From Bacilli bacterium (GTDB taxonomy: Bacteria; Bacillota_I; Bacilli_A; RF39; UBA660), in the NCBI GenBank assembly GCA_016297695.1, contig JAEDGC010000004.1:8074-72073 (forward strand): a stretch of 64,000 nt of DNA. Direction: 5' to 3'. Positions 36,001 to 39,000 of the stretch are shown piece after piece. Each line of letters begins with the position of its first letter. Positions within the stretch are counted from its first letter, which is position 1. Position numbers: made by a program.

Positions 36001-39000
36001 AGAAATACCTACATCTAATGAGTGGACAGATGAAGAGATTGAAACATTAAAAATATTATCAGATAAATATCATTATTCTGAAATAGCAAAAATTATGAAT
36101 AAAACAGAAAATGCTATTTATATAAAGGCTAGAAGATTAGGAATAACTTTAATACAAGATAGAAGAAAATGGACAGAAGAGGAAGAAACTTTATTATCGG
36201 ATTTATGGGGAACTAAGTCTATTGAAACTATAGCAAAAACTATGAAAAGAACTGTTTTTTCTATAAAAGTAAAAGCTGTAAGAATGGGACTTGGACCTAT
36301 GGTTAGAAATAATTATGATCTTATTACAGTATCTGACATGTGTGATTTACTTAATGTTACTCGTGATAGAATAACAACTACATGGATTGATTTAGGATTA
36401 AATTTAAAAAAGAAAAAGTTAACTAATAATACGGCATATTATGTCATTACATGGAATGATTTAATGGTTTTTTTAGAGAATAATCAAAATGAATGGGATT
36501 CAAGATATGTTGAAAAAAATATGCTTGGCACTGAACCTGAATGGTTAAAAGAAAAAAGAGATAGAGATTTAAAAGAAAATCCTCTTTGGTATCGTAAGTG
36601 GAATGAAGAAGAAATAAAACAAGCAGAAAACTTATTTAAATCTGGCAAGAATTATTTAGAAATTGCCAAAATTATAAACAGAAGTGAATGGGCAGTAGCT
36701 AATTTGCTTAGGAATATGGGGTACAGTTCTATGCTTCCTCAATTTTGGAAAGGTAAAGAATTAAAATATTTAAGAGAAAATTATGAAAATATGACTTATT
36801 CAGAAATAGCAGAAGCATTGGGAAGAACAACGAAAGCTATTGGGGCTAAAGCCGAAGAACTAGGTTATCAAAAAAGACTAACAAAATCAAAAAATAATGG
36901 TGGTGAAAGTAATGACTAGAAGATTATCATTGGATGAAACAAAAAAATGTTTAAGAGCATGGCGAGAACTTGCTGATAAAGAGGCATTAGAAGTTTTAAT
37001 AATTTGTAATGGTGGATTAGTTGGATTTTTTGCTAAAAAATATCTAGGGAAGGGTTTGACTTTCGAAGAATTACAATCAGCTGGTAATGAAGGTTTGTTA
37101 AATGCAATTAATAAGTTTGATTATAATGAAAAAGCAATAGAAGGATTTAGTTCCTATATTTCTACTGCAATTGAAAATCAAATGAAGAGGGAATTAAAAA
37201 AATATAATAAACATAGTCATGTATTAAGTTTTGATCAACCAATAGGTCAGAATAAAGATGGAGATGAAATGAAAATAGAAGATTTAATTGGTACTGATGC
37301 AGAACAATTAATAGAAGACGTAATATCTGAAATGAAAATAGATATTGTTCGTGAAGCTTTACAATGTTTGACTTCTAGAGAACAACAAATTATTTTATTG
37401 CGATATGGTCTTGATGAAGTACATCAAAAAACACAAGATGAGTTAGCAGAAATATTCGGATGCTCTCAAGCCACGATTGCAAGACTAGAACAAAAAGCAT
37501 TAGTAAAAATGAGACATCCAAGGAATACAAGAAAATTAAAAGATTTTATAGAAGAATAGTTATGTAATTTTAATAAAACCTTAGTACCACGTATTCTTAA
37601 AAAAATTAATGCTGTTCATTCTGTTCAGTTACGTTCACTGAAAATATTTTATATTCATTATTGAACGAAGATTATAGATTTATTTATGGGTATATTGAAA
37701 AATCTAAAATATATAAATGATTATGAATGATAATAAATATAAAAGTTAAAGATACTTGAAAGTATTTTTTTAAAATCTTAAATGAAATTTTTCTGTTTGT
37801 TAAAAAACAAATTTTATAGACTTTTCTATAATTTTTTTTGATTAATTAAATATAATTAAATATGAATAATTATTATTGGAAAATGTTAAGCTTATTTTTA
37901 ATATTAGTAATAGTATTTTCTTTCTTTAAAGCAAATGCCTTACTTCCATTATCTGGAAAGATAATAATTGTAGATCCAGGACACCAACGATACCTGATAA
38001 CAAGGTATATAAAATAAGGACTTTTAAAGAAAAGTTCTTTTTTTTATGTGTGTTTACTTTGTCATGTAGAGATAGCATGGCAGATTAGAAAGGAGGAATA
38101 TGATGAATGATTGCAAGGTTATAGCAGTTGCTAATCAAAAAGGTGGAGTAGGAAAAACTACTACAACATTTAGTTTAGGAGTAGCATTATCTAAAATGGG
38201 TAAAAAAGTATTATTAATTGATGCAGACCCACAAGGAGATTTAACAACCTATATGGGTTGGTATAATCAAGATGAATTGCCTTTAACAATATCAGATCTA
38301 ATGGAGCATGAAATAAGTGATAGTCCACTAGATAGTAAAAATGCTATATTACACCATAAGGAAAATGTTGATTTAATACCATCTAATTTGGATTTCTCAA
38401 CAATGGAAATGAAATTAGTTAATGCAATGAGTAGAGAACAAGCAATGAAAAGTTGTATAAGTAATTTAAAAAAAGATTATGATTATATTATTATTGATTG
38501 TATGCCCTCACTTGGAATGATAACAGTTAATGCACTAGCAAGTGCAGATAAAGTTATAATACCTGTTCAAGCACAATATTTAGCAGCAAAAGGTATGGGA
38601 CATTTATTAAGGACTGTTTCAAGCGTTAAAAAGCATTTAAATCCTAATTTACAGATAGGTGGAGTATTATTAACATTAGTTGATAAGAGAACTAATCTAT
38701 CAAGAGAAACAAGACAAGAATTGGAAGAAAACTATGGGAGTATTGTAAAAATATTTGATACACAAATTCCAATGGCTATAAAAACGGCTGAATCAACATC
38801 ACAGGGTAAAAGTATTTTTAGTTATGATAAGAATAGCAAGGTTGCAGAAGCATATTCATCATTTGCAAGAGAAATAGAAAATGGAAGAACAAAAGAGAAA
38901 AATGCAACTACCAAAGATTACGAGAGATGAGTTTTTTACTACACAAGAAGAAAGAGATTTGCGAAGTAAAGAACATGTTGAAAATATAAAAATAAGTGAT

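Follow-up and report, generated by a model that had tools for sequence, protein, structure and literature searches.

A short open reading frame (ORF) in the 64,000-nucleotide stretch analysed here, which as a whole we call the window (positions 8,074–72,073 of contig JAEDGC010000004.1, Bacilli bacterium assembly GCA_016297695.1), starts like the spore-related amidase gene cwlD and loses its frame where the DNA of an integrative and conjugative element (ICE) begins. The locus raises the questions of how the element came to lie there, where the rest of the gene is, and whether the gene is rebuilt during sporulation or simply knocked out. Our answer to the first is that the ICE was very probably integrated by site-specific recombination into a cwlD-like gene, at the CA of a His codon, by a large serine recombinase (LSR) of a family that uses the conserved Amidase_3 motif; a site-specific and reversible LSR integration is well supported by the junctions described below.

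A cwlD-like gene broken inside the His codon

The fusion ORF encodes MNNYYWKML...IIIVDPGH-QRYLITRYIK*, bearing out the original prediction of a CwlD start whose frame is lost after DPGH. Its residues 1–41 were 100% identical, in a search of the protein collection, to P0002, the product of an intact allele known from a fragment at a contig end, in which the sequence goes on with ...DPGHGGKDPGTVSNGIYESDINLKISKY and Pfam Amidase_3 is present; a second protein relative (P0001) has the same N-terminus and diverges 7 bp further on. At the DNA level, the window was collinear with the intact allele L001, which is 96% identical to its flanking chromosome, up to 37983 (GGACA|; ...GATCCAGGACA), with complete divergence thereafter. 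Comparison with relatives carrying an intact cwlD, which the original prediction had proposed, thus fixes the breakpoint to the base, at 37983/37984, within the codon for the His of DPGH|GG. What follows is ICE, as had been claimed, but it begins one to two bases further left than the 37985 first given. CA, the first two bases of the His codon, bounds every junction seen, and these are the last bases common to attL (window), attB (L001), attR (L018, L107, L123 and L134) and the hybrid P-CA-P' junctions (L122 and run X5).

Could the junction be an artefact, or the stump a relic? A 7,938-nt Logan contig of the source run (X1, SRR12268561), which is an independent assembly, spans the junction with 0 differences, and no other X1 contig crosses the site. 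This contig, together with junctions of the same type in other samples, rules out an assembly artefact. An old 5' remnant lacking its 3' part, or a chimeric assembly or binning join, would agree with the window itself, in which we found neither an amidase 3' part nor a serine recombinase. It is nonetheless very improbable, given the independent assembly, the identity of the stump protein to that of the intact allele, the same junction in many other samples and the presence in the same run, at matching depth, of the 3' part beside an LSR gene end (see below).

The left end of the element includes the inverted repeat ATACCT-N7-AGGTAT at 37990–38008, exactly as predicted, and is kept at 97.6–100% in independent insertions (L137–L144) and at ~78% in the ICE relative of L122. 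Just inside it lies an A+T-rich hairpin (38016–38039) followed by eight T ending at 38045. The 86-nt hairpin region folds at −19.4 kcal/mol (z = −2.7) and a shorter version of the stem is conserved in L122; a consensus terminator scan did not call the hairpin at 38016–38045, which has too few G–C pairs. This structure had been placed at ~38010–38035 and taken to insulate outward. It is present, but, judging from its predicted fold and position, it would act as a terminator-like insulator facing inward, blocking read-through from the cwlD promoter into the element; parA follows it, as anticipated. In Tn916, an end-proximal terminator serves as insulator (PMC11658703), and the hairpin and T run predicted here just inside the end would likewise stop host read-through, although the element family and the integrase type differ.

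How secure is the gene's name? The stump consists of a hydrophobic N-terminus and LPLSGKIIIVDPGH, in keeping with the CwlD layout of a signal/transmembrane segment and a single Amidase_3 domain in ~220–240 aa. The 51-aa ORF gave no match in Pfam or NCBIfam, being too short, and the assignment was scored on full-length proteins of relatives. Two such relatives from an N-terminal profile search, P0006 (217 aa) and the L121 protein (218 aa), cover positions 1–189 of TIGR02883 (CwlD) and so span the whole model, with scores of 185.7 and 196.2 bits respectively, which do not reach the curated equivalog cut-off of 221.55. TIGR02883 is nonetheless their top NCBIfam family, by >120 bits, and the best solved-structure match is C. 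difficile CwlD (7RAG_B). Because the best family and structure matches are CwlD and the score is under the cut-off, we name the gene cwlD-like on these sequence comparisons, and the identification made in the original prediction holds in this form.

Two further alleles are broken in other ways. In a syntenic relative, the cwlD without insertion is a pseudogene (L003:10001–10637), in which a small internal deletion leaves ORFs of 65 and 105 aa. In the same species, cwlD is broken by a different element (L002:583–800; Logan SRR30201813) with an apparent junction 7 bp further, GGACATGGTGG|AACATATTTGTCCC, that fits the same CA crossover and is followed by a DUF1835/DUF3658 gene.

The 3' half of the gene and the recombinase family

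A search of genome contigs with a CwlD alignment gave mostly distant amidases among the matches listed, L018 being the informative one. In this Bacilli metagenome-assembled genome, a 538-aa LSR gene ends in a stop and is followed by ...CTGTACTTTCA|CATGGTGGTCGTGAT, that is, by the 3' part of a cwlD gene, which begins at the same His codon. For evidence on the far end of the ICE, we aligned X1 contigs to L121 (an intact cwlD homologue) and to the reference LSR of L018. A 6,671-nt contig aligned to L121 with 0 gaps from 36 nt past the crossover to the gene end, at a depth of 14, compared with 12.7 and 14.6 for the window's own contigs. Its first unaligned letters, GCAAGGATCCGGGTACTGTTTCAAAT, are the same continuation as that of the intact allele after the junction. 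Upstream, it extends for another 1.28 kb without aligning to the 5' region of cwlD in the window; it matches the 3' end of the LSR gene (L018:4214–4261), ~112 nt upstream of the inferred crossover (120 nt in L018). On sequence and depth, the 3' half found after an LSR gene end in the same sample corresponds to the predicted attR. That the rest of cwlD had to lie beyond the element is therefore upheld, by this contig and by the related locus L134, which has both halves.

Other routes to the far end were negative. A 73-nt stretch around the L121 junction did not catch the X1 contig, and a scan of metagenome contigs with a pattern for the cwlD 3' start returned just intact relatives (L118–L121). 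Exact-protein look-ups with parA, LemA and the LSR matches did not reach the ICE right end, parA giving none and LemA the X1 contig itself. A relative in IMG/VR (L112/L116) proved to have a different 558-aa LSR, too distant to inform. Neither the ICE nor the LSR family had a close copy in phage, plasmid and IMG/VR collections, the best matches there reaching an identity of ≤79% for the type IV coupling protein (in high-GC relatives) and ≤46% for the LSR. Two X1 contigs, of 1,187 and 6,671 nt and both at depth 14, match the 3' half of the reference recombinase gene; there may be two paralogous serine recombinase genes at the far end.

The L018 recombinase has 3,541 relatives at E<1e-30, the top 120 of which are ≥67% identical to it. 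An LSR with Resolvase, Recombinase and Zn_ribbon_recom domains lies next to the att site in L018, L107–110, L122–125, L134–136 and L145–149. In all of these but L122, we found the order LSR stop, a P arm of 27–60 nt, CA and then TGG(N)GG... of an amidase gene. Among them are small integrative and mobilizable elements (IMEs). LSR P0266 belongs to an IME with GH10 and Mob_Pre genes upstream of Amidase_3-LysM genes, P0165 to one with HNH, Mob_Pre and DinD upstream of an amidase-LysM gene, P0171 to a 10.5-kb IME with a TetM/W/O/S-family gene in the cwlD of a relative, and P0200 to an IME with TetR and ABC transporter genes at cwlD or Amidase_3-LysM genes; a look-up of P0155 gave an element next to an esterase gene. 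The family is ~31% identical to TndX, and its best NCBIfam match is CcrB, at 119 bits against a cut-off of 900.

The P0171 case (L134) shows the outcome of the exchange at both ends. Both cwlD halves are present and open, and the junctions, attL ...GCTGGTCA|TGGAGG and attR ...CTGCACA|TGGTGG, share only CA, so that there is no target duplication beyond these two bases and the joined halves form one open cwlD frame. This is a conservative exchange with a 2-bp core and no target-site duplication. The Abi_2-HtrA synteny downstream of the split is the same as in L003.

These junctions suggest a mechanism for the window. In the motif D-P-G-H|G-G, the LSR would cross over at the CA that opens the codon of the catalytic His, by a 2-bp conservative exchange without target duplication. 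A 41-codon stump would be left on the left side, and the other ~176 codons would come to lie at the far end, immediately after the recombinase gene. The expected order there would be LSR ORF, a P arm of ~30–45 nt, CA, TGGTGGCAAGGATCC... and an open cwlD 3' frame, and excision would restore the amidase gene exactly. The LSR would belong to a large family that also drives small mobilizable elements and recognizes the Amidase_3 motif in many amidase genes and hosts, which makes amidase genes common landing pads on which elements can stack in tandem.

Several points weigh against this account as applied to the ICE. Only a single 48-nt piece of the 6,671-nt contig reaches 80% identity to the reference LSR, and the far-end recombinase is therefore taken to be a divergent family member. 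The ICE right end and its own recombinase are known solely from contig coordinates and 30-nt overhangs, and the LSR beside the cwlD 3' part could belong to a tandem element behind the ICE, since such arrays exist (L122). In run X5, AATTTGGACTTTTCCGATTCCTGC stands before the left end of the ICE and equals, letter for letter, the P arm that the tet-bearing IME has in L134; this junction may reflect either another tandem array or an attP belonging to the ICE, and a by-eye check of the P and P' arms for dyad symmetry in support of an attP gave nothing convincing. The cwlD label, finally, goes back to relatives that score 186–196 bits, below the cut-off of 221.55. That the far-end LSR is the ICE's own, and that the element is excised, is our inference; the recombinase anticipated at the far end corresponds to the LSR gene 3' end of the 48-nt match, which may belong to the ICE.

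Some further observations concern these elements. Besides Mob_Pre and an ApeA-HEPN gene, the 10.5-kb mobilizable element of L134 (1085–11640) has a ribosomal protection gene of the TetM/TetW/TetO/TetS family, which scores 1239 bits (cut-off 1100). A conserved ORF of 45–54 aa (MEVVYNVKY[RK]FK...) lies directly upstream of every IME LSR (L107:9787–9930, L134:9766–9930, L145:9787–9930 and L126:6375–6512) and is a candidate recombination directionality factor. In L108–L110 (11629–16840), an unrelated element with a 522-aa serine recombinase is nested in the LysM part of an already split amidase gene. Another conserved motif, ...SNHINAGG|, is the point at which a second Amidase_3 gene (MDRALKKVVIDAGHGGEDPGT...) is interrupted in L145:17050–17328, L147:13411–13689 and L149:13464–13781, and the DNA after this break varies by sample (KAP NTPase, DUF7017/RnlAB or TnpV), which suggests a second mobile-element hot spot in amidase genes.

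One motif in many amidase genes: inactivation or developmental excision?

Is cwlD itself the target? Look-ups with the exact ParB, together with read layouts, placed the same ICE, joined at GGN-CA|CCAACGATACC (CA|CCAACG), in at least five other Amidase_3 genes. Two of these encode amidases with a signal peptide, …LPLTGKIITIDPGH and …KNKTIYIDPGH, and three encode amidases without one, MKDYKVVIDAGH, MKKIVVDAGH and MTKIVDPGH. Because the same ICE and LSR family occupies amidases without a signal peptide as well as Amidase_3-LysM genes, the target is not cwlD as such but D-[PA]-G-H|G-G, a coding motif conserved among Amidase_3 genes, and the site is not specific to a sporulation gene. Elements also share it in tandem: in L122, CA links the P arm of an IME with the P' arm of an ICE relative of 78% identity. 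The array occupies L122:10001–14437, with the IME directly followed by the ICE relative through the hybrid P-CA-P' junction.

One alternative reading is plain insertional inactivation, in which the conserved motif is a reliable and widespread landing site and cwlD is knocked out, its loss being tolerated or compensated; we give this explanation about an even chance. The many different amidase genes used as targets, the second, independent hot spot in Amidase_3 genes, the cwlD pseudogene of L003 and the lack of any assembled empty-site form in the source run all speak for it. Yet neither gene half shows decay, and LSR excision would restore the gene exactly, so that inactivation would be at most conditional. 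Moreover, loss of cwlD is costly to germination in model species, mutants of B. subtilis and C. difficile being strongly impaired in it. Plain but conditionally reversible inactivation, which we hold to be an evenly balanced proposition, is the main alternative to a developmental model.

In that developmental model, the LSR and a directionality factor would excise the ICE, and the related IMEs in cwlD, in the sporulating mother cell, whereas the forespore would keep the element; we regard this as rather unlikely. The rebuilt cwlD would then provide the muramic delta-lactam of the spore cortex, in the manner of skin in sigK or SPbeta in spsM, a proposal that we view with the same reserve. It is favoured by the open, indel-free state of the split cwlD halves (the 5' part in the window, the 3' part in X1, and the genes of L134 and of L145–149), by the recurrence of cwlD-like insertions in several spore-former lineages, by spoIIR in the host and by the expectation that loss of CwlD would cripple germination. 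Known intervening elements, too, use LSRs beside an att site (PMC5499854, PMC5025042, PMC5595907). The element thus lies inside a sporulation gene with both halves intact, as an intervening element should, with the reservation that membership of cwlD itself scores below the cut-off.

Against the developmental model stands the equal use of non-cwlD amidases by the same ICE and LSR family, the neighbours of the Amidase_3-LysM genes being non-sporulation genes. The conserved box upstream of the IME LSR genes resembles an ordinary TATAAT box and not a sigma-E/K promoter, and no recognizable sigma-E/K promoter was found upstream of these genes, in DNA that is A+T-rich. Among the assembled contigs of X1 there is neither an empty site nor an attP. 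The species also has intact alleles in circulation (L001, X2 and X5), and the dead cwlD without insertion in L003 implies that loss may be tolerated. Excision timed to sporulation, of the kind known from skin and SPbeta, is a plausible conjecture; that the ICE and its sister IMEs in cwlD are true developmental intervening elements, cut out in the mother cell and kept in the spore genome, is a shade less likely still than the model in general.

Known elements and the remaining content of the window

The elements known to intervene in sporulation genes, such as skin in sigK, SPbeta in spsM, gin in gerE and yin in yabG, split a spore-related gene and have an LSR gene adjacent to the att site (PMC5025042, PMC5499854, PMC5595907, PMC10747680). 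The recombination proteins of these elements include SpoIVCA of skin (CD1231 in C. difficile) and SprA/SprB of SPbeta; a further element of this kind is phi3T, in kamA. The locus described here resembles them in the position of the element inside a spore-related coding sequence, in the LSR gene beside one att site, in the 2-bp conservative exchange that would rebuild the ORF on excision and in the intactness of both halves. It differs in that the element is a full conjugative one (mobilizable in relatives) and not a prophage or prophage remnant, and in that the motif is common to many amidase paralogues, those without a role in sporulation included. cwlD is not among the targets named in the searchable text of PMC5595907, PMC10747680, PMC6957869 and PMC4191935, and full-text searches of the library returned no report of cwlD or Amidase_3 as a target, which is not proof of absence.

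Likeness to clostridial and enterococcal conjugative transposons with serine integrases, such as Tn5397 (TndX) and the CTn2, CTn4 and CTn5 types of C. difficile, lies in the CD1115-family coupling protein, the MobA/VirD2-type relaxase with DUF3801 and, probably, a serine recombinase as integrase at one end, whereas the LSR here, with its ~31% identity to TndX, belongs to a family common to small IMEs. We know of no description of the Amidase_3 active-site codon as a target of Tn5397/CTn-type elements. With the staphylococcal cassette chromosome (SCC and SCCmec, inserted by Ccr at rlmH/orfX), the present elements share recombinases of LSR type, the use of one conserved gene site by different cassettes and tandem composite arrays. 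SCC, in contrast, enters the 3' end of rlmH without disrupting it, whereas here the gene is cut at the catalytic histidine, and the elements here carry mobilization or conjugation genes of their own. Three features set this locus apart from the known systems: it is an ICE that has inserted, its target is a catalytic motif found across paralogues, and the LSR family serves ICEs and IMEs alike.

For Amidase_3 genes, an integration site within the codon of the catalytic His is now located to the base. It is common to a conjugative and several mobilizable elements of gut Firmicutes, one of the latter bearing a tet(M/W/O/S)-family resistance gene, and a common site helps to account for the spread of such elements, their stacking in tandem and the exchange of recombination modules between them. 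cwlD joins the spore-related genes found split by recombinase-bearing elements and offers a testable case for excision of a conjugative element in sporulation. Were such excision true, this would be the first conjugative element shown to act as a developmental switch, and the first such switch on cortex modification and germination. With its short, defined att sites and many natural variants, the LSR family may also interest those who collect serine integrases for genome engineering.

The ICE spans 37984 to the window end, at least 26 kb in the window, and continues for at least ~6 kb beyond, as far as L004 reaches. L004 holds an identical 293-aa gene followed by genes for the coupling protein, TrbL_2, DUF4314 and PrgI. 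The coupling protein scored 523.8 bits against NCBIfam NF045973 (cut-off 250), and the order of the DNA-processing genes is the same in L004–L013. The element thus combines a relaxase and a coupling protein with type IV secretion system genes (TrbL_2 and PrgI on L004, without VirB4 within reach), and its predicted gene content is that of an ICE of the clostridial CTn4/Tn1549-like type. The coordinates of all features are collected in Table 1. Within the cargo, the BsaA-family matrix protein, SipW-like signal peptidase and Flg_new protein genes (45072–47486) adjoin the gene for the sortase-anchored SpaA/thioester adhesin and together form a surface-fibre or adhesion module.

Table 1. Features around the cwlD-like gene and in the left part of the ICE (positions and strand as in the window)
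Feature	Position	Strand	Remarks
Two-gene cassette, 2,070 bp	35770..37839	+	Absent from L001, L002 and contigs of X2 and X5; outside the ICE
Truncated fusion ORF, 51 aa	37862..38017	+	41 cwlD codons and 10 element-end codons, then stop
Host-derived 5' part of cwlD-like gene	37862..37983	+	Signal/transmembrane segment, LPLSGKIIIVDPG and His codon bases 1–2
Inferred crossover dinucleotide CA	37982..37983	.	First two bases of catalytic His codon
Element left end, P' arm of attL	37984..38015	+	CCAACGATACCTGATAACAAGGTATATAAAATA; includes ATACCT-N7-AGGTAT
A+T-rich hairpin and T run	38016..38045	+	AAGGACTTTT-AAAG-AAAAGTTCTT and T run
parA	38100–38930	+	Pfam AAA_31/CbiA/ParA
parB	38881–39816	+	Pfam ParB_N
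Surface/adhesion cargo	40754..47486	+	1231-aa SpaA/thioester-domain adhesin, sortase, BsaA-family SipW-dependent matrix protein, SipW-like signal peptidase, Flg_new repeat protein
Giant SNF2/helicase-family protein, 2444 aa	48667..56001	+	
DNA-processing module	58176..63270	+	DUF3991-Toprim primase-like, NikA-like, relaxase, DUF3801 protein, 293-aa protein
NikA-like protein	59960–60295	+	
MobA/VirD2 relaxase (PF03432)	60295–61635	+	
VirD4-like coupling protein start (CD1115 family)	63463..64000	+	Cut by window end; position deduced from L004

The host is a low-GC, presumably spore-forming gut Clostridium-like bacterium, the window being A+T-rich (G+C ~25%). Chromosomal genes left of the junction comprise argS, prfA, prmC, spoIIR, a YtaF/MntP-like gene, murA, lemA and an FAD-dependent gene, and spoIIR, 6 kb upstream of the cwlD-like stump, supports a spore-former lineage. 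Between the FAD-dependent gene and cwlD, directly upstream of the latter, is inserted the two-gene cassette, which encodes a 356-aa protein with repeated Myb/sigma-r4-like helix-turn-helix units and a SigE/SigK-like sigma factor of 220 aa. The cassette is bordered by two copies of a 36-bp palindromic hairpin (35734–35769 and 37804–37839), and a ~91%-identical copy of the cassette occurs in other contexts in X2, X5 and X15.

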